NCBI GenBank assembly: GCA_964608605.1
Contig: CAZSOS010000002.1
Location: 36,601-100,600 of the forward strand
Length of the DNA: 64,000 bases
Source of the DNA: an uncultured Candidatus Saccharibacteria bacterium
Lineage (GTDB): Bacteria > Patescibacteriota > Minisyncoccia > Phycocordibacterales > UBA918
Direction: 5' to 3'
In this document: positions 3,638-35,917 of the stretch, one piece after another
Position numbering within the stretch: position 1 is the first letter of the stretch
Layout of the letters: every line of letters begins with the position of its first letter
Made by a program: the position numbers and the translations under genes
The notes under the pieces: generated by a model
Databases searched by the model: none
The model's input: only the letters and a program-made list of their open reading frames with translations
Told to the model about the DNA's origin: nothing

Positions 3638-3645
3638 TATACCAT

Positions 3646-4797
3646 TTATTTTAAGTAGCGTTTTTTCTTGAGTTTCTCCGGCAAGTAGCCCTTTTCATGG
3701 GCAAAGCCGGCCTCCCATTTTTGGCCTTGGCCGTAGCCGAGGTCTTTCATTAGTTTGGTGGGGGCGTTCCGAAGATGGGTAGGGATGGGCAGATTGCCGT
3801 ACTGCTTGATGTCGGCTTGCGCGGCGCGGAGCGCATCGTAGGAACGGCGGTCCTTTTTAGCCTGGGCTAGGTAGGCGACACCATGGGCCAAGTTGATGGC
3901 GCATTCTGGATAACCAATGACCTCGCAGGCCCGAAAGACCTCGTTAGCCACTACCAGGGCGGTGGGCTGGGCCAGACCGATGTCTTCGGAGGCAAAGACG
4001 ACCATACGCCGCGCGATGAATATCGGGTCTTCACCAGCCTCGATCATCCGGGCCAGGTAGTAGATGGCGGCGTCGGCATCAGAAGCCCGCATACTTTTTA
4101 TAAACGCCGAGATGGTGTTGTAGTGCTCCTCGCCCTTCTTGTCGTACCGGAGATGCGTGGACTGAAGCGTGGTTTCAAGCGTCTCGACAGTGATTTTCCC
4201 GTGCAGTTCTTGCGTTTGATCCATCAGGGTCAGCATTTGGCGCGCGTCGCCATTGGCCATCCGCACCAACCAATCCTGGGCCGCCTTCGGTACCTTTAAT
4301 TTCGTCCGCTTCACGATCAGGCGCATATCGTCTTCGGACAGTTCGTTGAGCACGAAGACGCGCGAGCGCGACAAGAGGGCGGAGATAACTTCAAAGCTTG
4401 GGTTTTCGGTGGTAGCACCGATGAGCGTCAGTTCACCCGACTCTACGTACGGCAAGAGAAAATCCTGCTGGGCTTTATTGAAACGATGGATCTCATCCAG
4501 AAACAACACTTTCCGCCGCAAGCTCGGGGTAGCGATGATCTTTCTGATATCTTCCTTGCCAGCCGATACGGCCGAGAGTTCGAACATCTCGGCATCAAGG
4601 GCGCCCGCATAGATCCGCGCTAAGGTGGTCTTCCCTACTCCCGGCGGTCCCCAGAGCACGAAGGAGAAAAGGTGCTTTTTTTCGATGGCTTCGCGGATGG
4701 GCTTCCCCGGGCTCACCAAATGCTCCTGGCCGATAAATTCGTCCAGATTGCGCGGGCGGATACGGGCGGCTAGGGGTTGCATATTAGGACTCATCAT
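3646..4797 (-). CDS. rarA: replication-associated recombination protein A (AAA+ ATPase MgsA/RarA)
   Basis: LWGPPGVGKTTLARIYA Walker A, followed by a RarA-like C-terminal region. Confidence 0.8.
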   Translation of the reverse strand: MMSPNMQPLAARIRPRNLDEFIGQEHLVSPGKPIREAIEKKHLFSFVLWGPPGVGKTTLARIYAGALDAEMFELSAVSAGKEDIRKIIATPSLRRKVLFLDEIHRFNKAQQDFLLPYVESGELTLIGATTENPSFEVISALLSRSRVFVLNELSEDDMRLIVKRTKLKVPKAAQDWLVRMANGDARQMLTLMDQTQELHGKITVETLETTLQSTHLRYDKKGEEHYNTISAFIKSMRASDADAAIYYLARMIEAGEDPIFIARRMVVFASEDIGLAQPTALVVANEVFRACEVIGYPECAINLAHGVAYLAQAKKDRRSYDALRAAQADIKQYGNLPIPTHLRNAPTKLMKDLGYGQGQKWEAGFAHEKGYLPEKLKKKRYLK

Positions 4798-4861
4798 ACC
4801 TAAACCCGGACAAAGGAAAAGCGCCGAGGAGGATCCCCCGGCGCTTCATAGAACTAAACGG

Positions 4862-5185
4862 CTACGCCACCAGGCTGGGCTGGCCCACCGCCCGACCAGG
4901 ATATTTGATGGCGACGGGATAAAAGGCCTTCAGGCCGCGATCCAACGCCGCCTGCTCCTGGACGGAGAAACAAAAACGGCTGGTCTCCAGGACGCAGTAG
5001 ATGGCGCTGTAGAGACCTCCATAGGTAGGTTCCTCCACCTGAACCGTCCCGTGGTGTTCGGACAGGATATCCACCATTTCCCGAATGGACTCACCTTCGG
5101 CTCCCAGGTCGTCCCGGGGCACTTTAGGACAGAGAAACCTGTCGTTCAGCATGAGATCGCCGATCTCCGACAAAGTTACGTTCAT
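4862..5185 (-). CDS. hypothetical protein (107 aa)
   Basis: ORF whose start overlaps the stop of the downstream nucleotidyltransferase gene by 4 nt, suggesting translational coupling. No recognisable motif. Confidence 0.4.
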   Translation of the reverse strand: MNVTLSEIGDLMLNDRFLCPKVPRDDLGAEGESIREMVDILSEHHGTVQVEEPTYGGLYSAIYCVLETSRFCFSVQEQAALDRGLKAFYPVAIKYPGRAVGQPSLVA

Positions 5186-5922
5186 CGCTTCCTCCTTTGC
5201 GCTTGAAGCGCGTCCTCTAGCGAGTTGATGCCGATGGCCTCCTCCGGAGGCATGGGCACGGTATGAACTTCCCTGCCGTCTACGATAGCGATTTCGGTGA
5301 GTTCCGTCAAATAATACTCGCCGGTGGTCTCATTCGGCCGCACGCGGGGCAAAGCCGCCTTCAGCCAGAGGGTATCGAAACAATTGCCGCCCGGAGTCAC
5401 TTCGTTGATGGCTCGTTCGTCCAAAGTGGCGTTCTTGTACTCGACCACGCCGATCACCCGGCCGTTCTCGTCGCGCTTCACCCGGCCGAAGGCCGTGAAA
5501 ACGCCGCGCCAGTCGTCATAGTCGGGCAAATCGACCGAGAACATGGCCATGGTCGGACGCGCGTCCACGAAAGCGGCGCGCATCCGTTCGATACTGGCCG
5601 TGGAGATGAAGGGATTGTCACCATAGAGGACGAGAGTGGGAGTCTCGTCGTCGAGCAACGGCAGCGCCGCCTTGGCGGCCGTGGCGGTGCCGGATAGTTC
5701 CACCTGCTGCGCGTAGCGGTACCGATCGCCCAGTTCGGCCTGAATGAGATCTCCCTGGTGCCCGACCACGATGATCGGCGGCAGAAAGCCCTCGGCCGCC
5801 TCCAGGGCTTCGATGACGTGGCGGATCATCGGCTTGCCTTCGAACGGAAAAAGCGGTTTTGGCAACTCGCTCTTCATCCGGCTTCCCTTGCCGCCGGCAA
5901 GGATAATGGGTTGGATGTTCAT
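5182..5922 (-). CDS. sugar-phosphate nucleotidyltransferase (GlmU N-terminal-like, NTP_transferase fold)
   Basis: The protein begins MNIQPIILAGGKGSRM, the G-rich nucleotide-binding loop. The ORF-track extension to 5991 runs into the tRNA-Ile gene and was rejected. Confidence 0.7.
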   Translation of the reverse strand: MNIQPIILAGGKGSRMKSELPKPLFPFEGKPMIRHVIEALEAAEGFLPPIIVVGHQGDLIQAELGDRYRYAQQVELSGTATAAKAALPLLDDETPTLVLYGDNPFISTASIERMRAAFVDARPTMAMFSVDLPDYDDWRGVFTAFGRVKRDENGRVIGVVEYKNATLDERAINEVTPGGNCFDTLWLKAALPRVRPNETTGEYYLTELTEIAIVDGREVHTVPMPPEEAIGINSLEDALQAQRRKR

Positions 5923-5933
5923 TCTGGTATTTG

Positions 5934-6006
5934 TGCGCGTTCTAGGGTTCGAACCTAGGACCTTTCGAGTATCAGTCGAATGCTCTACCAACTGAGCTAA
6001 ACGCGC
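5934..6006 (-). tRNA. tRNA-Ile (anticodon GAT)
   Basis: Hand-folded cloverleaf: acceptor GCGCGTT/AACGCGC, D-arm GCTC-AGTTGGTA-GAGC, anticodon arm TTCGA-CTGATAC-TCGAA, T-arm CTAGG-TTCGAAC-CCTAG. Confidence 0.8.
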
Positions 6007-6036
6007 GAATGTCGCTCGGCTATACTAGCAGAACGA

Positions 6037-6060
6037 AGGGCTATATTCAACCGCGGGTTT
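6037..6060 (-). promoter_or_regulatory. candidate sigma70-type promoter for tRNA-Ile (TTGAAT, 17-nt spacer, TAGTAT)
   Basis: The reverse complement of 6012-6042 reads TTGAAT, a 17-nt spacer, then TAGTAT, about 11 nt upstream of the tRNA 5' end. Confidence 0.45.
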
Positions 6061-6072
6061 CTGTGGTCGGAA

Positions 6073-6101
6073 TTGAAAAAGCCCGAGTTTTCAGGCATAA
6101 T
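6073..6101 (+). promoter_or_regulatory. candidate sigma70-type promoter for tRNA-Leu (TTGAAA, 17-nt spacer, CATAAT)
   Basis: TTGAAA at 6073-6078 and CATAAT at 6096-6101 with a 17-nt spacer, 8 nt upstream of the tRNA 5' end. Confidence 0.5.
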
Positions 6102-6109
6102 CAGGCGAC

Positions 6110-6196
6110 GCCGAAGTGGTGAAATTGGTATACACGCTACGTTCAGGTCGTAGTGGGGGCAACCCCGTGCTGGTTCAAGTCCAGTCTTCGGCACCA
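6110..6196 (+). tRNA. tRNA-Leu (anticodon CAG), long variable arm, CCA encoded
   Basis: Acceptor GCCGAAG/CTTCGGC, anticodon arm GCTAC-GTTCAGGT-CGTAG reading CAG, variable arm TGGGGGCAACCCCGTG, T-loop GGTTCAAGTCC, then CCA. Confidence 0.8.
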
Positions 6197-6204
6197 AAGA
6201 GAAA

Positions 6205-6231
6205 AACAGCCCTTGCGGGCTGTTTTTCGAT
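6205..6231. terminator. bidirectional intrinsic terminator hairpin (AAAACAGCCC-TTGC-GGGCTGTTTTT)
   Basis: A GC stem flanked by an A-run and a T-run, sitting between the tRNA-Leu end and the convergent gene's stop. Confidence 0.6.
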
Positions 6232-6312
6232 ACTGGTGCGAGGCGGGGCGGTGTATTTCGCTTCCTTTAACCTATCTTCTGTAGGCAGCTTTTTGCGTGT
6301 CTCTCTTCAGTT

Positions 6313-7008
6313 CTATTGCCGGCCGAACAGCATAGTGCCGTCGTCTTCAAGCTCCAGGACCAGCGCCCCGGAACCGGCGAAGAAGAAGCTCTTCACCCCT
6401 TCCAAGGCCGAGGTGAACTCGTGTTCTTGCGAACCTTCGCAATACATCATGGTCGAGGCTAGCGGACCAAAGGCCAACGCGTGATCGTTGACCTCGTAGC
6501 CGCCGAAGAAGCCGTTGCAGTCGGTCGTGCCGTTCACCCGACTCTCATCCGCGTCGAAGGTGATGGTGAAGGCGTCGGTCCGGCGCGGCTCGGTCACGAC
6601 CTCACCGATAGTGGTGGCTTGCCAAACCCAAGTGCCGGCCAACTTCAGGGCGTCGGTCAGGCCGCCGACGTTGCCGGAGAATATCTGCCGGCCATCTTTA
6701 GAAATGGTGACCGCCTCCCCCCGATTCCACAGCTCCAGACCCAGATCATCGTTGACGTAACGGGCTCCGGAAGCGGCGATGGCCAGGTCGAAGGCCAGGC
6801 CATCGTAGCCCAAGCCGTTCAAGACCGCGTGATCATCGCCTTTAAATTCCACCCTCACCGCCTCCCCCGTCTCCGGGCTGGTAAAGGTTATAGCTTCTTC
6901 CGCCATATTGGATCCCCAGGTTCCAGGTCCTTTCAGATAAAGGGCCAAGGATATCAGGGCGACCACTATGACCGCCACCAACAAGATCCATGATAGTTTT
7001 TTATCCAT
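6313..7008 (-). CDS. membrane-anchored MliC-like plus META/HslJ-domain protein
   Basis: N-terminal TM segment MDKKLSWILLVAVIVVALISLAL. The C-terminal part carries the META-domain pattern TTDCNGFFGGY...LAFGPLASTMMYC. The start was chosen at MDKK. Confidence 0.55.
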   Translation of the reverse strand: MDKKLSWILLVAVIVVALISLALYLKGPGTWGSNMAEEAITFTSPETGEAVRVEFKGDDHAVLNGLGYDGLAFDLAIAASGARYVNDDLGLELWNRGEAVTISKDGRQIFSGNVGGLTDALKLAGTWVWQATTIGEVVTEPRRTDAFTITFDADESRVNGTTDCNGFFGGYEVNDHALAFGPLASTMMYCEGSQEHEFTSALEGVKSFFFAGSGALVLELEDDGTMLFGRQ

Positions 7009-7225
7009 AAAATGATCGATGAGTTTAATTATTGATCCGAACTCCGCGTCGAAGGCCCTGACAAAGACAGCGCCATCGACAACTTCTTCGGCATGATTAG
7101 ATACCCCAAACTTCCCCAGCATCAGCGCGACCGACCTCTACCACGCTCGAAGGCATTCGTACTTCCAGTATACACCAGGCTTGATAAGTCGAAGGCGGTC
7201 ATGGGTCCGATGGTATAATGAGCGC

Positions 7226-7585
7226 ATGAACAGCCTTCAAGAGTTGCTCGGGTCGCTGATGACCTTTCTCAATAACGTCATAATTCCTTTCCTCTTCGGA
7301 CTGGCGCTCCTGTTCTTCATCTGGAACGCTTTCCGCTGGCTCATCCTCGGCGGGGCCGAAAAGGACGCCAAGGACAACGCCAAGCGGCTGGCGCTTTATG
7401 GCATCGGAGCTTTCGTGTTCTTGGTGAGCCTTTGGGGCATCGTGAACATGTTCGTGAACGGCTTGGGACTAGGCGGCGTGGATCAGGTAGAGCCGGACTA
7501 CATGTCGAACATGCCCGGCGGGTACGGCAGCGGAGGTGGCGGAGGCAACAACCAATATACCGAACCATTCCGAGGGCCCCGATAA
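7226..7585 (+). CDS. small two-TM membrane protein, TrbC/VirB2-like pilin (putative)
   Basis: Two hydrophobic helices separated by a Lys-rich loop, with a Gly-rich C-terminus. This architecture is common in CPR T4SS pilin-like proteins. The start was chosen at MNSLQ. Confidence 0.4.
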   Translation: MNSLQELLGSLMTFLNNVIIPFLFGLALLFFIWNAFRWLILGGAEKDAKDNAKRLALYGIGAFVFLVSLWGIVNMFVNGLGLGGVDQVEPDYMSNMPGGYGSGGGGGNNQYTEPFRGPR

Positions 7586-7587
7586 CA

Positions 7588-7616
7588 AAAAGCCGGCGCT
7601 ACGCGCCGGCTTTTTG
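7588..7616 (+). terminator. intrinsic terminator (AAAAAGCCGGCGC-TACG-CGCCGGCTTTTTG)
   Basis: Perfect GC hairpin followed by a T-run immediately after the stop codon. Confidence 0.7.
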
Positions 7617-7924
7617 TTATCTGTTTGAAAACTGAATCCGCATCACCAAATAAAACTTTCAGATTTGGATACAGTTGTGCTGGTTGGAGGAATTTTTACG
7701 CAGGAGACGTATATAGACATACGGCGACCAAGTAAAAATTCCGAAACCAGTGCAAATGTGCCAAATCTGGGAGTTTGTATCTTCTTTTGTCCCATCCTTT
7801 AGTTAATCTAGGTCTCTCCCTAGAGTCTCGATACCAGTTAAGGTTTGAGTATCATGACCATTGTGTACTCGATCGAGATACACAATATCGACGTAACCAA
7901 TGATCCGAAGATCACCGATGTCCA

Positions 7925-9385
<1,461 letters not shown>

Positions 9386-9750
9386 ACAGGTTTGGATAGC
9401 TCTTGGCTCTTAGTCGTTAGCTCTTAGAAAACTAAGGGCTAATTGCTAAGCGCTAGATGCTAACTTACCTGGGACCAGCCTACTCTGCGCCTGTACTTTG
9501 CTTGGCACTTCAGCTGATCCACCTAAAGGATGAGACAAAAGAAAGTGCAAACTGTTCTTTTGTCTCGCTACCAATACGGTGGTTGGCCGTATTGGATTTT
9601 CCGGTGCGGCCTTTGCTTCGCAAAGGCCGCACCGATGATGCGTAGAACCGGTTTTGAAACCGGTTCCATTATTCGATTGTCAAACAGCTCTGAGGACCGG
9701 ACCGGAGCGCTTCAAATAAGCCTTTCTCCCTTTCCCCCTCAAGTGGCGCT

Positions 9751-9778
9751 ATTATACAGATAAACAATAAAGATGCAA
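9751..9778 (-). promoter_or_regulatory. candidate 16S rRNA promoter (TTGCAT, 16-nt spacer, TATAAT) with a roughly 360-nt structured leader
   Basis: The reverse complement of 9751-9778 reads TTGCAT-ctttattgtttatctg-TATAAT. Leader hairpins lie at 9600-9680. Confidence 0.5.
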
Positions 9779-9862
9779 GCGGGCACGGTGGGTAAAAAGA
9801 AAGCCCGATGGATCCAATAAGGATTCCACCGGGGCTTGAATTTCGCCATCGATACCGGGAAC

Positions 9863-10204
9863 TTAATTGTTGGTATTGATAGCCACGGCCGAAGAGGCCA
9901 CGTTGACCGTCGCGGTAGCGGCGCTACCGAGGGCACCAAGCCCTCCGGCCACCACCCCGCCCGCGGCCCGGATCAGGTCTCCCCCGATGCCGTTGCCGCC
10001 TACGGCCGTCACGTTCACGCCACCCTTGACGCCGCTCGGAGCGGCGATGGCCGTGAGGCCGGGCGTGTTCATGGTGGCCGGCACGCGAATGGCCTTCAGG
10101 ACCACGCCGCTGCCGAGATTGACATCGGCGACCTGCACGCCATGCGTGCACGCGCCAAGCAGCATGATGCCGCCAAACGCCAGAGCCAGTCGAAACTTAT
10201 GCAT
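9863..10204 (-). CDS. Gly-rich lipoprotein (signal peptide with lipobox LLGAC)
   Basis: MHKFRLALAFGGIMLLGAC... is followed by a Gly/Val/Ala-rich low-complexity segment. The local GC content is very high. Confidence 0.5.
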   Translation of the reverse strand: MHKFRLALAFGGIMLLGACTHGVQVADVNLGSGVVLKAIRVPATMNTPGLTAIAAPSGVKGGVNVTAVGGNGIGGDLIRAAGGVVAGGLGALGSAATATVNVASSAVAINTNN

Positions 10205-10265
10205 CGCACCCTCCTAGTTGATGGGATCTGACGGCGCGGGACATATGTCCCGCGCCGTCAACGGC

Positions 10266-11108
10266 TTACAGGCCGTTGTTGCTCGCGAACGAGCTGGCCG
10301 AACCGGATGCCGAAGCATTGCCGCCGGCCGTCGACGTCGCGTCGGCCGAAACCGTCGAGCCCGTCGAGCCGCTCCACGAACCGGACATGATCCCAGAGAC
10401 GGTGGAGGCGGTAGCGCCTTCGTTCCAGGTATTGCCGTAGGCATTGGCATTACCGACAGTCGCGGCGTCAGCCGAAGCGTTGGAACCAGCCGAGACATTG
10501 GCCCCGGAGGGGCTGATATCCGTGCTGGACCAGACCGTGCCATCAGTCGACGCCGTCGATCTTCCCTGATTAGTGGAGCTCGCGCCCACGCTCGAGGAGG
10601 TATCGCCGGTAGAGACGTTGGTGGCCGACAGGAAACCGCCGCTGTACTGGAACCCGACCGTGCCGTTGCCGCCGCTCTGTGCGAAGGCGTTGCCCGCGCC
10701 GTTGCCGGGCGTGGCCTGACCGTTGTCGGTGCCCGCTGCCGCGCCGGTCGAGGCCAAGAACCCCGAACCGATCGAACTCGTCGAGCCGAGGAACCCGGAG
10801 ATCTGGCCCGAAGACCAGCCGGTCACCTCGTGCATGGCCGAGGAGCCGGCGCTACCGGAATTGCTGCCGGTCGCCTGCGCATCACCATGCGAGAAGCTGC
10901 CACCCCCCGTAGTCCAGCCGCCGGAGGACGAACCCGTCCCCGACCAGCCGGAACCGTTGCCCGTCTGGGTCGTTCCGTTGCTGGAGAAGGCGCCGCCGGC
11001 GCCGGACGAGCCGATCGAAGCCCAGCTGTCGGCCGCGGCCGCGCCACCCAGGAAGAGTGCCAGAGCCACGGCCGACGCGCCCGCCAGCATCGATTTGAAG
11101 AGATGCAT
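10266..11108 (-). CDS. secreted Gly/Ser/Thr/Asn-rich low-complexity protein
   Basis: Signal peptide MHLFKSMLAGASAVALALFLGGAAAADS, then 250 aa of G/S/T/N-rich sequence. Preferred over the antisense Arg-rich ORF 10218..11111. Confidence 0.5.
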   Translation of the reverse strand: MHLFKSMLAGASAVALALFLGGAAAADSWASIGSSGAGGAFSSNGTTQTGNGSGWSGTGSSSGGWTTGGGSFSHGDAQATGSNSGSAGSSAMHEVTGWSSGQISGFLGSTSSIGSGFLASTGAAAGTDNGQATPGNGAGNAFAQSGGNGTVGFQYSGGFLSATNVSTGDTSSSVGASSTNQGRSTASTDGTVWSSTDISPSGANVSAGSNASADAATVGNANAYGNTWNEGATASTVSGIMSGSWSGSTGSTVSADATSTAGGNASASGSASSFASNNGL

Positions 11109-11191
11109 TGAAAGAACCTTTCCGTTCGTTGTTCGAAAACACCGAGGCTTATGCCCCAGTGTTCACAAGTATACACATTTTTGAAAATTTG

Positions 11192-11566
11192 TCAACCCCC
11201 GCAGGCGGTAGCTGAGCCTTTGGAATCTTCCCTTTCTCCCAGGTGTCCTCGGCTATCGAGACACAGGTACCGGCCGGAGGTCATCCGGGTCTCGATGGCG
11301 TAAGAGTTGGCGTCGGCGGCGCAGGCGAATCCGGCCGGCAGACCCACGTCGCGGCAGAGGCCATCGTAGAAGCCGAGCCGTCCGTGATAGGCCTTGGCAC
11401 TGGCCTGAAGGCGCAGTAGGTGCGCCTTGGCCTGCTGGTCCGCGGTGTCCACTTCGGTATTCAGAAGAAACCAGGCCAAAAAGCCCACGCCGACGAGGAT
11501 GACCGCGACCAAAAGTACCTGGATCACCGTCACTAAATTACGATGCACGCGCATATGATGAATCAT
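11192..11566 (-). CDS. membrane-anchored hypothetical protein
   Basis: N-terminal TM segment VIQVLLVAVILVGVGFLAWFLL and several Cys residues in the ectodomain. Confidence 0.4.
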   Translation of the reverse strand: MIHHMRVHRNLVTVIQVLLVAVILVGVGFLAWFLLNTEVDTADQQAKAHLLRLQASAKAYHGRLGFYDGLCRDVGLPAGFACAADANSYAIETRMTSGRYLCLDSRGHLGEREDSKGSATACGG

Positions 11567-11625
11567 AACATTAGTGCCACCAAAGCAGTTAGGTCAGGGC
11601 GAAAGACTCTTGTAAGATATTCGTA

Positions 11626-12321
11626 ATGAAACCAGAAACCATCGTCATGTCGGTCGGCGGATCGCTGATCGTGCCTGACCAAATCGACACCGGCTTTTTA
11701 GCTTCCTTAAAACAATTCATCGAAACGGCGGTCGCCAAGGGCGACCGCCGTTTCGTCATTATTGCTGGCGGCGGCCGGACCGCCCGCCGTTATCAGGACG
11801 CTGCCGACTCGCTCCATCTTCTAAACAAGGAGGACCTCGACTGGATCGGCATCCACGCCACCCGCCTTAATGGCCATCTACTGCGCACCATCTTTAAAGA
11901 CGTGGCCCACCCGACGGTTATCACCAACCCCGACGAAGTCCTCGATGTGCCACACGATGTCAGCGTGATCATCGCTGCCGGTTATCGGCCGGGCGCTTCC
12001 ACCGACCTGAGGGCGATCCAAATAGCTGAGCGGGTGAGCGCTAAAAAAGTCATCAACCTCTCCAATATCGACCACGTTTATACCGCTGACCCGAAGACCG
12101 AACCGAACGCCACGCCGATCGAAGATATCACCTGGAGCGAGTTTCGAAAATTGATCCCGGCCGAGTGGGACCCGGGGCTCTCTTCCCCGTTTGACCCGAT
12201 CGCCGCCCGCGAAGCCTCCGATAAAGAGATCGAGGTAGCCTGCATCAATGGCGACAAGCTCAGTGAGTTGCAGAAATATCTAAATAACGAACCCTTTATC
12301 GGCACACGTATTCATATATAA
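11626..12321 (+). CDS. pyrH: uridylate (UMP) kinase, archaeal-type amino-acid-kinase fold
   Basis: SVGGSLIV, IIAGGGRTARRY, IDHVYTADPKTEPNA and the TD..A..IAE motif match archaeal-type PyrH. Confidence 0.7.
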   Translation: MKPETIVMSVGGSLIVPDQIDTGFLASLKQFIETAVAKGDRRFVIIAGGGRTARRYQDAADSLHLLNKEDLDWIGIHATRLNGHLLRTIFKDVAHPTVITNPDEVLDVPHDVSVIIAAGYRPGASTDLRAIQIAERVSAKKVINLSNIDHVYTADPKTEPNATPIEDITWSEFRKLIPAEWDPGLSSPFDPIAAREASDKEIEVACINGDKLSELQKYLNNEPFIGTRIHI

Positions 12322-12324
12322 AAA

Positions 12325-12358
12325 GAAAACGCGCCGCCACAAAGTGGCGGCGCGCGGA
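12325..12358. terminator. bidirectional terminator hairpin (CGCGCCGCCAC-AAA-GTGGCGGCGCG) between convergent genes
   Basis: An 11-bp GC stem with a flanking A-run and T-run. Confidence 0.6.
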
Positions 12359-12367
12359 AGAAAAGAA

Positions 12368-12802
12368 CTACGACCGAGCCACGAAAGCGTACCCGGCGCC
12401 CACTTTTATGGGGTCATGCCTGGACAAGAATGTCTGCGGATCCTGACCGATCGCCCTACGAGTTCCCCGCTTGATCCAACCATCCTTAGGACCAGCGCCG
12501 TTCGGCTCGAACAGACGCAAGCGAGCGTTCCAGGACTCAATGGTCCCCGGCTCATGACCCTCGTCACGCAAAATCAGTCTTTCCATCTCCTCAACAGAAT
12601 AGACCGCCACCGGCGCCGGTTCGTTCGGATCCCAATCTTCGCGCTCCACCAACCGAGCCGGCTGGCCGGCAGGGGCATCCGTATCCGGTTCGTACCGGCG
12701 AGAACGTTCCGCGAAATACGCCGCGGTATCGGGTTCGTAGCCGTCAGCCAAAAGAGACTGATGCGCTTCTTCGATGGAAACGGTTACCTTATTGCAGTAC
12801 AT
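12368..12802 (-). CDS. hypothetical protein (144 aa)
   Basis: ORF with acidic, Pro-rich composition and no recognisable motif. Confidence 0.35.
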   Translation of the reverse strand: MYCNKVTVSIEEAHQSLLADGYEPDTAAYFAERSRRYEPDTDAPAGQPARLVEREDWDPNEPAPVAVYSVEEMERLILRDEGHEPGTIESWNARLRLFEPNGAGPKDGWIKRGTRRAIGQDPQTFLSRHDPIKVGAGYAFVARS

Positions 12803-19461: not shown

Positions 19462-19482
19462 TATACTAGTCAGACTAGTATA
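19462..19482. repeat. REP-like 21-bp palindrome TATACTAGTCAGACTAGTATA (copy 1)
   Basis: Perfect palindrome of the same consensus as the copies flanking the RAYT gene at 32.1-33.1 kb. Confidence 0.8.
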
Positions 19483-24309: not shown

Positions 24310-24430
24310 TTGAAGTTGGCGCCTACCTACTCTGCCCCAATTAAGGAGTACCATCGGCGATGGAGGGCTTAACTGCCGTGTTCGGAATGAGAACGGGTGT
24401 ACCCCCTCCGCTAAAGCACCAACTTCAAAA
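24310..24430 (-). rRNA. rrf: 5S ribosomal RNA
   Basis: The reverse complement contains CCGTTCTCATTCCGAACACGGCAGTTAAGC...GCCGATGGTACT...GGGCAGAGTAGGTAGGCGCC, with helix I pairing TTGAAGTTGGTGC/GCGCCAACTTCAA. Confidence 0.8.
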
Positions 24431-24504: not shown

Positions 24505-24580
24505 TGGCTGGGGCGGAAGGAGTCGAACCAACACCTGAGGGATAGTACCCTCCGTTCTAACCGTTAAACTAAGCCCCAGC
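24505..24580 (-). tRNA. tRNA-like gene with a non-canonical anticodon loop (apparently 6 nt) and U-U pairs in the T-stem; possible pseudo-tRNA
   Basis: Hand fold gives a good acceptor stem, a D-arm and the T-loop TTCGACT, but the anticodon stem GAGGG/CCCTC encloses only 6 nt (TACTAT). The isotype cannot be assigned by hand. Confidence 0.35.
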
Positions 24581-24602: not shown

Positions 24603-24680
24603 TGGTCGGAGCAACGGGATTTGAACCCGTGACCCCTGGCTACCCGAGCCTAGTGCGCTACCAGGCTGCGCTACACTCCG
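24603..24680 (-). tRNA. tRNA-Pro-like (D-arm identical to tRNA-Pro, loop CTCGGGT reading CGG), anticodon stem irregular
   Basis: Acceptor CGGAGTG/TGCTCCG plus A and CCA, D-arm GCGC-AGCCTGGTA-GCGC, T-arm ACGGG-TTCAAAT-CCCGT. The anticodon region CTAGG-CTCGGGT-AGCCA does not pair canonically. Confidence 0.5.
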
Positions 24681-24996
24681 ACCTAGAGTAGGTGATATTT
24701 TTATCTTCCTACTCAAAACCAGTTCCCCGCTGGTTTATTGTTCGCAGTCTAATTAAGACCGCTTCAGAATATCCAAGCTTGTCCCGTACCAAGACGAATG
24801 TCTTTGGTACGGGATATTTCGCACATCTTCTTACCAGGTTCACACTTCACCCAAAATCGTACAGCGATATCCAGCATTCCTTGCAGGAAATACGTCCGAT
24901 TAGTACTTCTCGGCTCAACGTATTACTACGCTTACACCTAAAGCCTATCAACCTAATCATCTCTTAGGGGACTTCATGATACCTAATCTCAGAGTT

Positions 24997-25029
<33 letters not shown>

Positions 25030-25171
25030 ATTCCCGACATAGCTACTGGGCAGTGCCGCTGGCGCGACAGCCCACAGACCAGAGGTCAGTTCATCCCGGT
25101 CCTCTCGTACTAGGGACAAATCTCTTCAAGTATCGACGCCTGCAGTAGATAGGAGACCAACCTGTCTCACG

Positions 25172-25530
25172 CAATAGTAGCTGATTAGCTTTTAGCACTT
25201 AGCTATTAGCCATTCAACGCCATCATTACTGACGGGATCGGACTGTAACTTAGCCGGTTCTCGGCTTCCGATATTCAGTCTCTACAAGTGCACGAGTAAA
25301 CTTTTTTGCCAGTTTTACTCTGCTTCTCTCGGTATTGCCCGCAACATTACTTGTTAGGGTTTTACCGATTTTAATCGGATCATATCACTGATATTCCTAT
25401 CAGTGACCGCCGTGTAGGTTGGTTCTTTTCTTTGTTCATAAACGAAAAGTAAAAACAATTCTTCGAAGGGGTTTAGACTGCTGAATTTCCCTTAGCCAAG
25501 AGCTAAGTGCTAATAACTAAGAGCTATTCA
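25172..25530 (-). mobile_element. 359-nt ORF-less insertion in 23S between GGGTTTAGACCGT and CGTGAGACAGG (E. coli ~2593, the I-CreI/I-CeuI homing site); group I intron candidate with TTAGC-repeat inverted ends
   Basis: Exon sequence is continuous across the insertion. The insertion ends are TTAGC-rich inverted repeats at 25178-25210 and 25497-25527. Confidence 0.55.
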
Positions 25531-26187
25531 ACGGTCTAAACCCAGCTCGCGTATCTTTTTAATTGGCGAACAGCCAAACCCTTGGGACCTGCTCCAGCCC
25601 CAGGATAAGATGAGCCGACATCGAGGTGCCGAACCGTGCCGTCGCTTTGGACGCTTGGGCACGACTAGCCTGTTATCCCCAGGGTAACTTTTATCGGGTA
25701 ATCTCCGGCGGCATCTAACGCCAACCATCGGTTCACTATGCTCCGCTTTCGCGTCTGTTCGGCATCTACGCCTTACAGTCAAGCCAACTTTTGCCATTGC
25801 ACTATCGGCACGGTTTCCATTCGCGCCTAGTTGACCTTGAGACCCCTCCGTTACATTTTGGGAGGGTAGCGCCCCACTAAAACTGCCTGCCACTCACTGT
25901 CCCCGCCGCGTTTGACGCGACGGGTTAGAAACTGCCCAATTTAAGATAGGTATTTCACTGACGACTCCACGGTACCCGAAAGCCCGCTTCAAAGTCTCCC
26001 TACTATGCTACGCATAAATCAAACAGCCCCAATAAGAAGCTACAGTAAAGCTCCTGGGGTCTCTTCGTCTAACTGCAGGTAGGCTGCATCTTCACAGCCA
26101 TTGTATTTTCACCGAGCAGGTCCTTGAGACAGTTTCCCAGTCGTTACGCCATTCGTGCACGTCGGAACTTACCCGACAAGGAATTGC

Positions 26188-26420
26188 GCTCTATAATTCC
26201 TTCTTTAATGTAGATACCCGCGTATCTACGTACACAATAGGACTCTATCTTCACCCTCTTATATACTAGTCAGACTAGTATAAAGGTGGGGTGTGCAACA
26301 TTTGGTCTCTTGTTGGTTGCAATTGGAAATACTAATGATTACTCACTAGTAAGGTAACTATGGCTCGGGCTGTTTAACTCTACAATCGTTCTAATCCGTA
26401 GAGCACACTTCCGAAGAAAC
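26188..26420 (-). mobile_element. ~233-nt ORF-less insertion in 23S between GGTAGAGCGC and (G)CAATTCCTTGTCGGG (E. coli ~1917 intron site); carries an internal REP-like palindrome
   Basis: Flanking exon sequence aligns to AACTATAACGGTCCTAAGGTAGCG|AAATTCCTTGTCGGG. Palindrome TATACTAGTCAGACTAGTATA lies at 26262-26282. A 7-nt direct repeat AGAGCGC sits at the junctions. Confidence 0.5.
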
Positions 26421-26647
26421 GCGCTCTACCTTAGAACGATTATAGTTATCGCTGACATTGACGGGGGCTTACACAGTCCAGCACCCAGCACCACTCTCAC
26501 AAACTTTGTTTGTGAAGATGGTGCTGGGCACCGCCCGTGCTTAACCTTCCCGCATTGGTCAGGCGTCACCCTCTATACATGGACTTACGTCTTCGCAGAG
26601 AGCTGTGTTTTTGTTAAACAGTCGCCAGGAAATCTTTCGCTGCGGCC

Positions 26648-26836
26648 GAGCGCATCACGCTACGCGCGATGACTAAATTCAAAATTGAAAAGTCAAAATG
26701 CAAAATTACAATGCAAAGTTCAAAATTTCGCTACGAACTCTATGAGTACGTGACGTAATTTTTACTTTTTATTTGTACTTTTGATTTTTGAGATTTTCCT
26801 TTTCAATTTAGCATCACATGCAATGTGATGCGCTCG
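26648..26836 (-). repeat. AT-rich IVS-like expansion in the 23S helix-63 region (copy A of a duplicated AT-rich element)
   Basis: Inserted between the complementary arms GAGCGCATCAC and GTGATGCGCTC. Contains a 47-nt segment (26689-26735) identical to 27405-27451. Confidence 0.6.
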
Positions 26837-27374
26837 GCAGGCCTTATCCCGAAGTTACGGCCGCTTTTTTGCCGAGTTCCTTAAGGACCCCTCACTCGTT
26901 CGCCTTGGTCTTCTCGACCCTACCACCTGTGTCGGTTTGCGGTACGGAACCACTATGCTTAACCCAAACGAAGTTTTTCTCGGAAGCGTGCTCCTTACAT
27001 TTCCTTGGCCGTAGCCGCAGATTCAGACTCTACTCGGATGATATCGCGCGGATTTGCCTACGCGACGTCCTCATAGCTCCAGCACCAATCCAATAAGATG
27101 CTGTAAGTACAACGCTCCGTCCCTCCATAGGAACATAGCAGTGTGCAGGAATATTAACCTGCTCTCCATCGCCTCCGGCGTTCGCCATCGGCTTAGGACC
27201 GACTAACCCTTCGCTGATCACCATCGCGAAGGAAACCTCGGTATTTCGGCGGACGGGGTTCTCACCCGTCTTGCGGTTACTTGTGCCGGCATTCTCACTT
27301 CGCATCGCTCCAGGTAGGGTCTCCCCCACCATTCATCGCAGATACGAACGCTCTCCTACCACTCAACGCACCTC

Positions 27375-27525
27375 ACAAAAGTTCGTTGCTAAAATAAAAA
27401 TGTAAAAGTCAAAATGCAAAATTACAATGCAAAGTTCAAAATTTCGCTACGTGCTATCCTGCGCGTTGCGTGATTTTGATTTTTGAGATTTCAATTTTCA
27501 ATTTAGCATCTCACCTCTGTGAGAT
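27375..27525 (-). repeat. AT-rich IVS-like expansion in 23S helix 45 (copy B)
   Basis: Inserted in the helix-45 stem CAGCGCATCTCAC/GTGAGGTGCGTTG, the site of the classical enterobacterial and Coxiella IVS. Shares the 47-nt repeat and the GATTTTTGAGATTT motif with copy A. Confidence 0.6.
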
Positions 27526-27615
27526 GCGCTGAATCCGCAGTTTCGGTAATATGCTTGAGCCCCGATCATCTTCGGCGCAAGGACTCTCGACCAGTGAGCT
27601 GTTACGCTTTCTTTA

Positions 27616-27650
<35 letters not shown>

Positions 27651-28210
27651 TAGAGAATCCTCACCTCCTCCAGATGCACTGAGCATATATTTAGGGACCT
27701 TAACTGGCGATCTGGGCTGTTCCCCTTTTGACCAATGGAGCTTCTCCCCCATAGTCTAACTGCCGAGCTATAATCTCTGGTATTCGGAGTTTGATAGGAA
27801 CAACGAGCTTTCGCCCTGTTTGTTCCTTCCAGTGCTCTACCCCCAGAGGGACCACTCGACGCCAACCCAAAAGCTGTTTCGGAGAGAACCAGCTATTACG
27901 GAAATCGATTAGCTTTTCACTCCTTACCACAAGTCATCCGATGGTTTTGTACGGCCAACCGGTTCGGGCCTCCACGAGGTTTTACCCTCGCTTCACCCTG
28001 CTCATGGCAAGCTCTTCCCGCTTCGGGTCGTACCCCAACTCCATATTCGCGCTATTCACGCTCGCTTTCACTGCGCCTCCGCGGGTTTTCCGCTTAGACA
28101 AGGAATTAAGGTACACTCGCCGGCTCATTCTTCAATAGGCACGCCGCAACCCCGAAAGGCCGCGACTCCTTGTAAGTGTATGGTTTCAGATCTATTTCAC
28201 TCCCCTCTCC

Positions 28211-28256
<46 letters not shown>

Positions 28257-28554
28257 TTAAAAGATATTTAGCCTTACCAGTTAGTGCTGGCAGATTCATC
28301 CGAGCTATTCATGTCTCGAACTACTCAGGAACAAGATCAACGGAGTCATATACATTTCAAATACGGGACTATTACCCACTGGGGTCGAGCTTCCCAACTC
28401 GTTCTTCTATATATATGTTTTGTAACTCCGCGCAACTAAATGCGGACCTTGCCCTACAACCCCGTAAATATTGCTATCAACGGTTTGGGCTATTCCCGTT
28501 TCGCTCGCCGCTACTAAGGGAATCGCGAGAACCTTCTTCCTGGTTTCAATGGCC

Positions 28555-28878
28555 CCAGCACCACTTTTTGGTTTCAATGGATTTGAGACGACTCACATCT
28601 TTTCAATAATTCTTGTTTGCCGCGACCATGTTGTTTAAGTCGCTGCTCACGCTTGTCCGCATCGTCTTTAGAACGGTATGCTTCTGCGTATATCAAGATC
28701 CATTTCCCTGATGTTCTGTGCGTAGACTTATTGCGTGAGCTATTATGCTCGCTAAGTCGTCGCCTCAAATCATTGGTTCTTCCAATGTAGATATCTCTAG
28801 TATCACTGTGTTGTATCACATAGACACTGTACATAATCCACATTGTATCAAAACCAAAAAGTGGTGCTGGGTAGTTTT
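28555..28878 (-). mobile_element. IVS-like element in 23S domain I (E. coli ~210) bounded by 21-bp perfect inverted repeats CCCAGCACCACTTTTTGGTTT; encodes a GIY-YIG protein
   Basis: Inverted repeats at 28555-28575 and 28858-28878. The flanking rRNA aligns to GAAAAGAAA...GATTCCC..AGTAGCGGCGAGCGAA. Confidence 0.65.
28574..28843 (-). CDS. GIY-YIG nuclease superfamily protein (89 aa) encoded inside the 23S rRNA gene
   Basis: YSVYVIQHSDTRDIYIGRTNDLRRRLSEHN carries the GIY...YIG motifs with conserved Arg and Glu. Confidence 0.6.
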   Translation of the reverse strand: MWIMYSVYVIQHSDTRDIYIGRTNDLRRRLSEHNSSRNKSTHRTSGKWILIYAEAYRSKDDADKREQRLKQHGRGKQELLKRCESSQIH

Positions 28879-29150
28879 AACCAGAAAGAAAGTTCCGTAT
28901 ATTGCTTTCTTTTCCTCTCGGTACTGAGATGTTTCACTTCCCGAGGTGTGCTCTCGCATAACGCGAGTTTCCGACGTAATCGGAAGGGTTTCCCCATTCG
29001 GAGATCTCCGGATCGAAGGTTGATTGTCACCTCCCCGAAGCTTATCGCAGACATTCTACGTCCTTCATCGCTCTTTTAAGCCAAGGCATCCACCATACAC
29101 CCTTACATTCCTGCAAGGAATGCTGTACACCGCTGTACGATTCTGATCAT

Positions 29151-31840: not shown

Positions 31841-31913
31841 CGGGGTATCGTATAGTGGTAGTATGCACGCATGGGGTGCGTGTAGCGTCGGTTCGATTCC
31901 GGCTACCCCGACC
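31841..31913 (+). tRNA. tRNA-Pro (anticodon GGG)
   Basis: Acceptor CGGGGTA/TACCCCG, D-arm GTAT-AGTGGTA-GTAT, anticodon arm CACGC-ATGGGGT-GCGTG, T-arm GTCGG-TTCGATT-CCGGC. The acceptor stem is extended a further 8 bp by the flanks AAAAACCAAGGT/ACCTTGGTTTTT. Confidence 0.7.
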
Positions 31914-32074: not shown

Positions 32075-32118
32075 TATACCAGTCAGACTAGTATATTTAT
32101 ACTAGTCTGACTGGTATT
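32075..32118. repeat. REP-like palindrome doublet (TATACCAGTCAGACTAGTATA then TATACTAGTCTGACTGGTATA) at the 3' end of the RAYT gene
   Basis: Two adjacent 21-bp palindromes in opposite polarity, a BIME-like arrangement. Confidence 0.8.
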
Positions 32119-32806
32119 ATTCTAAAACCTTCTCTCCTTGCACCCATTTTCCTCCCAAAATCACGTCCTTTGAATAATCTTTAAAAGATTGTGGGGTGAA
32201 GATATTGAATAATAAATTGTTATTATTCAAAATCGGAGATCCTTTCCTGACACCCGAGTAATCGCCCAAACTGGAGAAATTATAATCTTTGGCCCAACTC
32301 CAAGCTTTTTCAAAATCTTCTATAGCCGATCTCAATCCTCCATCCGGGTAAAGTTCGAATGTGTTCTTCACCATGACATAAGCGGCTACGTATCTTAAAT
32401 ACTCATCTTCAACGATCGTTTTAGATCGGAACGCTCCTTGGAACAGACTCCCCCGCTCTTCATATTTTTCATTCGAGTGATTGGTCATACTCTGGCCCAA
32501 CCTTTGCATAAAGAGGCTCACACCACCTTCGGATATCTCCTGAATCAATAAATGAAAGTGGTTAGGCATCAATGTGTACCCTAAAACCTCTACCAGAGGT
32601 TCCCTGTCGGGCCAACTCGACGGACGACTGAATACATGACGATGATCTTCATAAATCCAGTTTTTACTGAAGTGCTTGTCATTCAAAAGAAACAGCATCC
32701 TCAAAAAGCGCCACCGGTCACTTTCGTCACGAACTATGTTAAGTCCTCGTGCGCCTCGTTTGACAATGTGCAAGTATGAACCGACCGAATATGGTTCCAC
32801 CCTCAT
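32117..32806 (-). CDS. REP-associated tyrosine transposase (RAYT) / IS200-like HuH-Y1 transposase
   Basis: The HuH motif in LGYTLMPNHFHLLIQE and a catalytic-Tyr region (EYLRYVAAYVMVKN) fit the Y1 transposase fold. The gene is flanked on both sides by REP-like palindromes. Confidence 0.7.
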   Translation of the reverse strand: MRVEPYSVGSYLHIVKRGARGLNIVRDESDRWRFLRMLFLLNDKHFSKNWIYEDHRHVFSRPSSWPDREPLVEVLGYTLMPNHFHLLIQEISEGGVSLFMQRLGQSMTNHSNEKYEERGSLFQGAFRSKTIVEDEYLRYVAAYVMVKNTFELYPDGGLRSAIEDFEKAWSWAKDYNFSSLGDYSGVRKGSPILNNNNLLFNIFTPQSFKDYSKDVILGGKWVQGEKVLE

Positions 32807-32815
32807 AAACCTACT

Positions 32816-32836
32816 ATATACCAGTCTGACTAGTAT
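32816..32836. repeat. REP-like palindrome TATACCAGTCTGACTAGTATA immediately upstream of the RAYT start
   Basis: Same 21-bp consensus as the other copies. Confidence 0.8.
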
Positions 32837-32974
32837 ATATTTATTGTTTTGTTGATAGCTTTCACCTAGCCTGTGGCGCCGACGATGAGGACGATGAAGA
32901 GGCCGACAGTGATGACGATAAGGAAACTGAAGAGGAATTTGTAGAAAGTTGAGTTGAACATGAGTTTGATTATA

Positions 32975-33003
32975 ACAAACCCCGCGGCCATAGGCCGCGG
33001 GGT
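32975..33003. terminator. hairpin AACCCCGCGGCC-ATA-GGCCGCGGGGTT (terminator of the surface-protein gene)
   Basis: 12-bp GC stem flanked by T-rich sequence. Confidence 0.55.
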
Positions 33004-33011
33004 TTGTTGTT

Positions 33012-33055
33012 TATACCAGTCTGACTAGCATAAATATACTAGTCTGACTGGTATA
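33012..33055. repeat. REP-like palindrome doublet (TATACCAGTCTGACTAGCATA then TATACTAGTCTGACTGGTATA)
   Basis: Second BIME-like doublet, about 200 bp upstream of the RAYT gene. Confidence 0.75.
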
Positions 33056-33151
33056 GAAAAAAGAAAAGGTGGGAAACAAAAAGCCCGCCGCGGTTAGGCG
33101 GGGGCTTTTTGTTGATCTACTCACTCAAGCGAGCGGTAATTCACGCAATGA

Positions 33152-35151: not shown

Positions 35152-35171
35152 TAATATGAATTAATTCATAT
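35152..35171. promoter_or_regulatory. perfect 20-bp AT palindrome AATATGAATTAATTCATATT directly upstream of the surface-protein gene (candidate operator)
   Basis: Exact palindrome in a promoter-proximal position. Further perfect GC palindromes lie at 35212-35229 and 35241-35267. Confidence 0.35.
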
Positions 35172-35917
35172 TAACAATTCGGGAGTTAAAACCGAATTGA
35201 GAATATGCCAGCCGCGCATCGCGATGCGCGTCCGGCAGACTGGAGCCGCGGCCTTCGGCCGCGGCTCCAAGTTGCCAGACACGATCACGACAGTATTCGA
35301 CACCGAGGGATAAACCCTGCGCGATCCGGTGATAAGGGGGGACCGAATTTCTATCTGATTGCGACCGAACCCGGGAGCCATGAAGGCCCGGGCAAGCGGA
35401 AAAAGGAAGTCGGGAATGGTTTGCTTGGTTGACTAGTAACTGGTTTCTGACCAGAAAACTAGACAACCAGTGAACTAGAAGAGATATTCAATTTTCAAAC
35501 AACACCCGTGCGAGCCAGCTAATAAAAAAGCGTGCTACAGCACATCGCACATAAGTATACACAGAGCCCTGAGGCTTAAGCGGATCTGATGTGGAAAACC
35601 ATACCAAGTTACGTTAATCGTGCCTAAAAGGCAAGCAGTGAAGCGGGTTTCCTTGTCGGAAACGACATCGAAAAACTCCTTGGATATCTAGTGATTAAGA
35701 CGAGAGATGGACCGAGCTCTTACTATGGAAGTTTGATTAAGGAATAGATAATGATGAGTGTCAAAGAGACGAATCTGGCACCATGACCGAAGTCGTCTCA
35801 TATAAAATCGACCGGTTCTTGATATCCATCCGGGGCGCGAAGCTGACCTTTAGCAAGAAGCATTAAAGGACAGAAACAATAGCGAGCGATAAAAGACAAT
35901 GGGCTTCCCTTCCCCAG

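Follow-up and report, generated by a model that had tools for sequence, protein, structure and literature searches.

Cognate GTCWGAC-tipped hairpins adjoin a predicted HUH/Y1 endonuclease gene in a candidate REPtron-like module of a Patescibacteria-type genome

Positions 32075-33055 of a 64-kb stretch of DNA from an uncultured Patescibacteriota bacterium (contig CAZSOS010000002.1; the whole stretch is called the window) hold a gene for a predicted HUH/Y1 single-strand DNA endonuclease and five copies of a 21-bp palindrome, which raises the question of whether the two belong together as an enzyme and its DNA partners and, if so, in which kind of system. An earlier note on this DNA had proposed a system of repetitive extragenic palindromes (REPs) and a REP-associated tyrosine transposase (RAYT). 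Judged from sequence comparisons and a structural model, the locus appears to be a REPtron-like module but not a canonical RAYT. The core of the proposal is therefore supported: a match to the Pfam Y1_Tnp profile, a TnpA_REP structure as the best fold match, hairpins at all 75 related loci and a ~14-fold enrichment of dispersed copies speak for it, and canonical RAYT membership has to be given up.

The palindromes are not a chance accumulation. A pattern search of the 64-kb window for the degenerate 21-mer TATACYAGTCWGACTRGTATA, allowing up to 3 mismatches, returned exactly seven sites with 0-1 mismatch each (starts at 19462, 26262, 32075, 32098, 32817, 33012 and 33035); 100 dinucleotide-preserving shuffles, used as the null, contained no copy, so that zero were expected and seven observed, and a looser fuzzy search of the window added no convincing further copies. 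A scan for the 21-mer in a collection of genome contigs that lacks the source genome gave a single, unrelated hit, in a Rickettsiales genome. The seven copies in 64 kb that the earlier note had counted are thereby confirmed. Their spread is narrower than it had claimed, as five of the seven lie within 250 bp of the 229-aa open reading frame at 32117-32806 and form the gene's own flanks, and only the copies at 19462 (intergenic) and 26262 are dispersed. The elements concerned are the following.

32117 to 32806, minus strand: gene for the predicted HUH/Y1 single-strand DNA endonuclease (229 aa; HuH residues N82-H83-F-H85 within MPNHFHLL), present as first described
32075 to 32118, unstranded: downstream inverted doublet, made of two 21-bp hairpins (32075-32095 and 32098-32118), each nearly the reverse complement of the other
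32817 to 32837, unstranded: one hairpin on its own, 10 nt before the ATG of the Y1 gene
33012 to 33055, unstranded: upstream inverted doublet (33012-33032 and 33035-33055)
19462 to 19482, unstranded: dispersed perfect copy, TATACTAGTCAGACTAGTATA, in a 312-bp intergenic region between sugar-transferase and glycosyltransferase genes
26262 to 26282, unstranded: dispersed perfect copy, identical to the one at 19462, capping a P8-like hairpin of an intervening sequence in the 23S rRNA gene

The gene is thus bracketed by doublets at 32075-32118 and 33012-33055, as had been stated; the element between them, listed as a doublet at 32816-32836, turns out to be one copy at 32817-32837. The halves of each doublet are reverse complements, or nearly so, and each small hairpin is therefore mismatched while the pair forms a long hairpin of ~44 bp; one doublet gives a perfect one, and the other falls just short of that. 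In particular, each 21-bp hairpin of the downstream doublet, whose last three bases overlap the stop codon of the Y1 gene, has an internal mismatch, and the joined doublet is a hairpin with a 19-bp stem. Folded as single-stranded DNA, this doublet reaches -18.7 kcal/mol (z = -10.7) and the upstream one -14 kcal/mol (z = -6), as compared with -2.9 to -5 kcal/mol for the unextended single copies. The upstream doublet is itself flanked by GC-rich palindromes at 32972-33010 and 33084-33102.

Does this arrangement recur wherever the gene occurs? Related metagenomic loci, designated by L-numbers (L002, L005 and so on), were collected, 80 of them fetched plus several others, and 75 non-redundant loci are the basis of the gene-hairpin counts. 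Palindromes cognate to the local Y1 gene adjoin it in all 75. A scan for palindromes with a stem of at least 9, at most 1 mismatch and a distance of at most 400 bp from the gene found 120 that are centred on GTCWGAC; any other 3-nt core, taken as a control, yielded 7 or fewer. The exact GTCWGAC tip is found in 62 of the 75 loci, and in the remaining 13 the palindromes beside the gene carry a variant of it (ATCWGAT, GTCGGAC, GTTWAAC, AGCAGCT or CTTSAAG). The closest relative, L002 (71% identity), carries the window's own 21-mer, and inverted doublets recur in L046, L067, L082 and L083, with a looser form in L020, L064 and L077. Moreover, relatives at 36-38% identity (L087 and L088) are bracketed by palindromes of their own, and L077 contains, at 386-1199 and 9 kb from its main gene, a paralogue (32% identity; Y-motif YLHLNP) with a separate palindrome family, TCGGGATTTACGAAATCCCGA, on both flanks plus one copy in frame inside the open reading frame. 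For subclass 2.4, REP insertions within tnpA_REP genes have been reported, and this internal copy is reminiscent of them.

Two of these loci show further peculiarities. L002 has runs of N at 3856-4103 and 4850-5079 that are bordered on both sides by hairpin sequence, and they may be an assembly artefact caused by the palindromes. In L080, four stem sequences, all of them GTCWGAC-tipped, occur at 5423-12458, within 16 kb of one gene, which suggests that stems diversify inside one genome and that the tip is kept.

The anatomy of the hairpin separates a fixed part from a variable one. The upstream hairpin typically lies 0-30 nt from the gene's start, with a median gap of 23 nt, and the consensus reads T(-10)...R(-4)-GTC-W-GAC-Y(+4)...A(+10), with a commonest stem of 10 bp. 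In a position table of 124 hairpins, the conserved elements are the tip GTCWGAC and the pair T(-10)/A(+10); stem positions -9 to -5 are variable between lineages yet complementary. The same table contains no conserved tetranucleotide at the foot, in particular none of the GT[AG]G type, no information outside the stem, and no orientation bias of the central A/T relative to the gene; a conserved tetranucleotide 5' of the hairpin, of which the earlier note had spoken, is accordingly missing from the family. In 51 representative hairpins, 96.5% of cells are paired and double changes occur in seven of seven variable pairs, a count that is descriptive because these sequences were picked for being palindromic. 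The evidence free of this circularity is the enrichment of the core, together with the observation that 77% of GTCWGAC heptamers near the gene lie in stems of at least 8 bp, as against 26% elsewhere. A function as RNA hairpins was considered and rejected, as sense-strand mismatches show no excess of G.U over C.A (23 versus 19), and a role at the level of DNA rather than RNA is thereby favoured.

By fold and motifs, the 229-aa product classifies as an HUH/Y1 enzyme, a prediction that draws on sequence profiles and on an AlphaFold model with a pLDDT of 90. It scores 29.9 bits against Pfam Y1_Tnp, above the cut-off of 23, and 29.3 bits against the NCBIfam RAYT equivalog REP_Tyr_transpos (NF047646), far below the cut-off of 80; the expectation of a match to Y1 and RAYT profiles was therefore borne out for the first profile and not for the second. 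Among 20 family members scanned, 19 match the NCBIfam RAYT model alone, all at E-values of 2.6e-14 or weaker, and no NCBIfam IS200 model was matched. In an alignment of 25 homologues, N82, H83, H85, FQG at 122-124 (Q123), Y139, Y143, K147 and N148 are invariant, and Y143, H83 and H85 stay so down to 28% identity. The clade is marked by the Y-motif Y[VI]MVKN, which includes Y143 (Y143-VMV-K-N in the window protein), by a clade-specific Y139 and by a C-terminal helical domain with FSS; it grades into relatives of ~230 aa at ~30% identity whose Y-motif is YIHLNP. Pfam detects no helix-turn-helix C-terminal domain in the protein.

A Foldseek search of the PDB places 4er8_A, the E. coli TnpA_REP with its REP hairpin, at the top, followed by the IS608, ISDra2 and IS200 transposases. 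A sequence search against solved structures returned ISDra2 TnpA alone, marginally (E = 0.12), with no match to 4er8 at E up to 10, and kinship to TnpA_REP therefore rests on the fold. Affiliation with phage or defence genes was tried and rejected, since neither PHROGs nor PADLOC gave a match. Homologues number 580, for the most part ~228 aa in length with 55-71% identity; almost every one comes from a single contig, and where a name is given, which is seldom, it is Patescibacteria or Kaiserbacteria. A profile search collects 149 clusters (at 50% identity) at E <= 1e-30 and 3276 at E <= 1e-10, and thus the family is sizeable.

With a Y1 enzyme between similar hairpins, the locus could be an autonomous insertion sequence of the IS200/IS605 type, the flanking hairpins being its ends and the solitary hairpins its footprints or miniature derivatives. 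Hairpins on both sides of the gene are indeed what IS200 has, and the gene's composition and location are also in line with it. In particular, the AT content of the Y1 gene exceeds that of the sequence around it in 34 of 35 loci (the window and 34 related ones), by a mean of 6.3 GC points and in the window by 12.9 points (GC of 42% against 55%), though its GC partly tracks that of the host; it lies between L12 and p207, rather than upstream of L10, in L019 and L030; and when L072 (at 3128-4114) is compared with L052, a second strain, the upstream flanks are 98% identical, the two Y1 genes being only 87% identical. In the same comparison, two extra small genes are inserted next to the L072 Y1 gene, and the hairpins of L072 have the tips ATCAGAT (upstream) and GTCTGAC (downstream).

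The remaining evidence argues for a resident gene. The order FtsK, p234, p660, Y1 gene, L10, L12, p207, 23S is common to the window, L005 and L027, and is largely kept in L023 and L024; between the syntenic relatives, the Y1 protein is 60-65% identical, compared with 64-69% for L10, 70-73% for L12 and 67-68% for FtsK, so that it diverges much as its housekeeping neighbours do. There is one copy of the gene in the window and no near-identical second copy in any of the loci, most protein clusters derive from one contig, and the genes are embedded in contigs of up to 381 kb, in assemblies that are not broken at the gene. Further, the protein has no Y---Q motif, its 229 aa include a C-terminal domain in place of a ~150-aa core, no NCBIfam IS200 model recognises the family, and in the sequence available no tnpB-like open reading frame stands beside the gene, the neighbours being housekeeping or surface-protein genes. 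An insertion sequence is thus quite improbable; by its synteny, its neighbour-like divergence and the lack of near-identical duplicates in the available loci, the gene behaves as a resident, that is domesticated, host gene.

If the gene is resident, its palindromes could be nothing more than cis-regulatory or structural elements of that gene (operators, mRNA-stabilising hairpins or terminators), with distant copies incidental and nothing mobilised. In most loci the hairpins do lie 0-30 nt from the start codon and just past the stop codon, where they would suit translational or mRNA control, and few copies are found away from the gene. The two distant copies in the window, however, are identical 21-mers where none is expected. 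Moreover, in 506 kb of related loci, scanned at more than 400 bp from the gene, GTCWGAC palindromes number 15, where a control core averages 1.06 (~14-fold), and most of these dispersed copies have the same stem as the hairpins of the local gene. The balance of G.U and C.A mismatches carries no sign of selection on RNA, no T-tract was scored at the 21-mer hairpins, the terminator scan flagging the 33084-33102 palindrome alone as terminator-like, and the centres of the hairpins flip faster than point mutation would predict. Overall, purely cis-acting elements are an improbable explanation.

The flipping of centres was seen in five independent close pairs of loci with gene identities of 89-96% (L053/L070, L056/L069, L058/L059, L065/L066 and L052/L075). 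The centre base is exchanged between A and T in 4 of 10 orthologous hairpins, none of them in L052/L075, and in 9 of the 10 not one of the 20 arm positions differs; in the same pairs, A/T interchange at third codon positions amounts to 8 of 711. By our own calculation on this small sample, the binomial estimate for the flips is ~4e-6, which points to physically inverted palindromes or to copies converting one another, and away from point mutation.

The copy at 26262 poses a question of its own, as the earlier note had placed it in an insertion inside the 23S rRNA gene. It does lie in such an insertion; the finer placement is the peripheral loop of a probable intron of 240 nt, and the copy is probably absent from the mature rRNA.

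26192 to 26431 (approximate), minus strand: 23S intervening sequence that hosts the 26262 copy, 240 nt, inserted after position 1953 of the large-subunit rRNA model, which we take to be E. coli position ~1931 from our own helix 69 numbering

A three-genome alignment shows homologous insertions at the same 23S site in L030 and L005. Against Rfam RF00028, the intervening sequence scores 24.1 bits (E = 2e-4), below the gathering score of 50, with P3, P7, P8 and P9 aligned and P4-P6 not, and the homologous insertion of L030 has no RF00028 match. A firm group I intron call was therefore rejected, and from sequence the element is a probable small group I intron. By the RF00028 alignment and the predicted fold, the palindrome forms the tip of a P8-like hairpin; at this point L030 has a short loop and L005 an unrelated extension of ~90 nt, which identifies the site as a peripheral loop that varies; mature rRNA probably lacks the hairpin. 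The 23S gene itself (24879-29116, minus strand) is 4238 nt long against a model of 2925 positions and so contains several insertions, among them an AT-rich long hairpin of 168 nt at 26644-26839. The 16S gene (7925-9384, minus strand) is unlinked, 15 kb from the 23S-5S pair (5S at 24314-24423, minus strand).

A palindrome at the tip of an already existing hairpin is also what would be seen if the causal order were reversed, with the hairpins as pre-existing host palindromes that act as targets and the gene or other elements landing beside them; REPs are described as known insertion-sequence targets (PMC1525189). Each lineage, however, has a stem of its own that matches on both sides of its gene, the 32% identical paralogue of L077 has a distinct palindrome family, and dispersed copies share the stem of the local gene, which argues for co-inheritance of gene and hairpins and not for targeting of a generic host motif. 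Such targeting is highly improbable.

To which known system is the module closest? The REPtrons (E. coli YafM, PDB 4ER8; the Pseudomonas RAYTs; subclasses 2.2, 2.4, 2.5, 2.7 and 2.8 of Quentin et al. 2018) have in common with it the HUH/Y1 fold, a single syntenic gene, as far as the available loci show, and the bracketing of that gene by cognate palindromes with copies elsewhere; the window's inverted doublets form one long hairpin as REPINs do, and each paralogue has its own palindrome family, as in PMC6006769. Three canonical RAYT features nonetheless fail, namely the NCBIfam cut-off, the Y---NP motif and the GT[AG]G foot. In particular, the clade has Y[VI]MVKN where class 2 has Y---NP (PMC6006769), and the conserved part of the hairpin is the tip GTCWGAC in place of the GT[AG]G foot of RAYT hairpins. 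The protein likewise differs in having no sequence match to 4er8 and a sub-threshold RAYT score, and the hairpins in being nearly perfect palindromes, without orientation except at the centre, and in their low density of ~0.03 per kb.

The hosts differ as well. Here they have small genomes of the Patescibacteria type; for Y1 genes that stand apart from insertion sequences, a link with large genomes was reported, in a sample of 1354 species with complete genomes whose published text makes no mention of Patescibacteria, Parcubacteria or Microgenomates (Quentin et al. 2018, PMC6006769). In the same survey such genes are not mainly proteobacterial, so that the proteobacterial bias which had made this locus seem out of place does not hold. 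Text searches returned no paper in which Patescibacteria or the candidate phyla radiation are connected with RAYTs or with palindromes of the IS200 type.

By motif comparison with Table 1 of PMC6006769, the closest signature is that of TIRYT, or TnpA_Y1 subclass 2.1 (Bertels Group 1, 'TIRtron'): this subclass has NH[YF]H, FQ instead of WQ, a C-terminal SS and a length of ~230-240 aa (~238), and the window protein has NHFH, FQG, FSS and 229 aa. TIRYT genes are also flanked by mutually inverted repeats and have moderately abundant families. Their repeats, however, are long terminal inverted repeats with GGGGWSAS, as opposed to the short GTCWGAC palindromes found here, and the flanks of the Y1 gene contain no G-rich inverted repeat; the subclass 2.1 Y-motif is Y[IV]HLNP, not Y[VI]MVKN, a helix-turn-helix C-terminal domain goes undetected by Pfam in the window protein, and no REP-like hairpins were found beside subclass 2.1 genes (PMC6006769).

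The TnpA proteins of IS200/IS605 elements (IS608, ISDra2) share the HUH/Y1 fold and have hairpins beside the gene as DNA partners. They differ in their Y---Q motif and ~150-aa core, where the window protein has Y143-VMV-K-N and 229 aa with a C-terminal helical domain, and in being multi-copy and often accompanied by tnpB, neither of which applies in the sequence available here; the window gene, moreover, has the same palindrome on both flanks, not distinct left and right ends with guide tetranucleotides.

A fourth comparison is with the hairpin origins nicked by rolling-circle or parvoviral HUH Rep proteins, which combine a conserved tip with variable stems and show flip-flop of an asymmetric palindrome centre; two-tyrosine Rep proteins have two tyrosines one helical turn apart. 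The conserved tip and variable stems, the centre flips and the spacing of Y139 and Y143, one helical turn apart, resemble these by analogy only; the fold and family here are those of the Y1 transposases, and neither a replicon nor a helicase domain nor a phage or plasmid setting is present.

From the non-random repeats, the Y1 fold and motifs, the gene-hairpin association, the stem covariation, the synteny and single-copy status, the enrichment of dispersed copies and the centre flipping, we infer a joint model that is probably correct, in which the enzyme binds extruded hairpins by their tip, uses the HuH motif and Y143 to cut and rejoin single-stranded DNA, and occasionally copies, moves or inverts the hairpins. 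In this model, the palindromes would extrude as hairpins in single-stranded DNA, for example on the lagging-strand template; the enzyme would recognise the near-invariant tip GTC-W-GAC plus a generic stem of ~10 bp; and the strand would be cut and rejoined by way of the HuH-bound metal and Tyr143. Cutting and rejoining would occasionally copy, move or invert hairpins, singly or as inverted doublets of ~44 bp. Such movement would explain the dispersed copies at 19462 and 26262 as well as the low-copy families in the relatives; tip binding, the cleavage chemistry and the enzyme as the cause of dispersal and flipping are the inferred parts of the model.

Several observations weigh against the joint model. 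The placement of the gene in L019 and L030 implies that it moved at least locally, and AT-richness is also a trait of mobile or transferred DNA, which speaks against simple vertical inheritance. The density of dispersed copies is the same in the window (2 in ~63 kb) as in the relatives, at ~0.03 per kb, and, with ~1 Mb assumed as the size of such genomes, it extrapolates to tens of dispersed copies per genome, low for a REP family; this genome-wide figure is an extrapolation from the 64-kb window, and it lies far below the copy number of classical REP families. Comparison of close relatives for presence or absence of hairpins, which the earlier note had proposed, gave no clean pair of filled and empty sites: L052/L072 and L053/L070 have larger indels near the hairpins and no simple hairpin-sized indel, and for the 19462 copy an orthologous empty site was not obtainable, as the L030 intergenic region is too diverged to align. 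Finally, the flips could come from gene conversion between copies and not from enzyme action.

A different account of the same observations, possible but doubtful, is a hairpin-processing system that is vertically inherited throughout the Patescibacteria and is neither RAYT nor IS200; it would read the tip and not a foot tetranucleotide, nick in or next to the tip, possibly with Y139 and Y143 together, and resolve or invert palindromes with a flip-flop of the centre as in parvoviral terminal resolution. If it were true, retention in many lineages with very small genomes would reflect a host function in the handling of single-stranded DNA or palindromes and not the selfish spread of repeats.

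Other features lie near the module. Between the upstream single hairpin and the upstream doublet is a small open reading frame.

32866 to 32958, minus strand: 30-aa hydrophobic small open reading frame

A tblastn search finds it in the corresponding place in L002 (77% identity) and in L016 (47%); no protein family matched it, and it may be a passenger of the hairpin-gene module. A tRNA-Pro(GGG) gene lies ~160 nt from the downstream doublet, on the strand opposite to the Y1 gene. ARAGORN calls at 24505-24578 (minus strand), 24603-24680 (minus strand) and 31841-31913 (plus strand) comprise two tRNA-Pro(GGG) and a tRNA-Ser whose anticodon, ACT, is unusual. Another conserved palindrome, AATATGAATTAATTCATATT, stands just 5' of the gene for a 660-aa surface protein with a weak PG_binding_1 match (35152-35173 in the window, 7654-7673 in L005 and 413-440 in L002); it has the look of a conserved operator and bears no relation to the GTCWGAC hairpins.

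The leading case of a bacterial transposase that has been domesticated and lives alongside its miniature repeats is that of the REP/RAYT systems. The module described here extends the association with hairpins to the Y1 branch closest to subclass 2.1/TIRYT, for which REP-like hairpins had been unreported, and its anatomy is simple and low in copy number, with one gene and few hairpins. The near-invariant 7-nt tip is a direct biochemical handle, and natural covariation separates what the enzyme would read, the tip, from what must merely pair, the stem. The hosts have some of the smallest genomes among free-standing bacteria, and such genomes tend to shed genes that are not essential; the fast A/T flipping of the hairpin centres hints at active DNA processing today.

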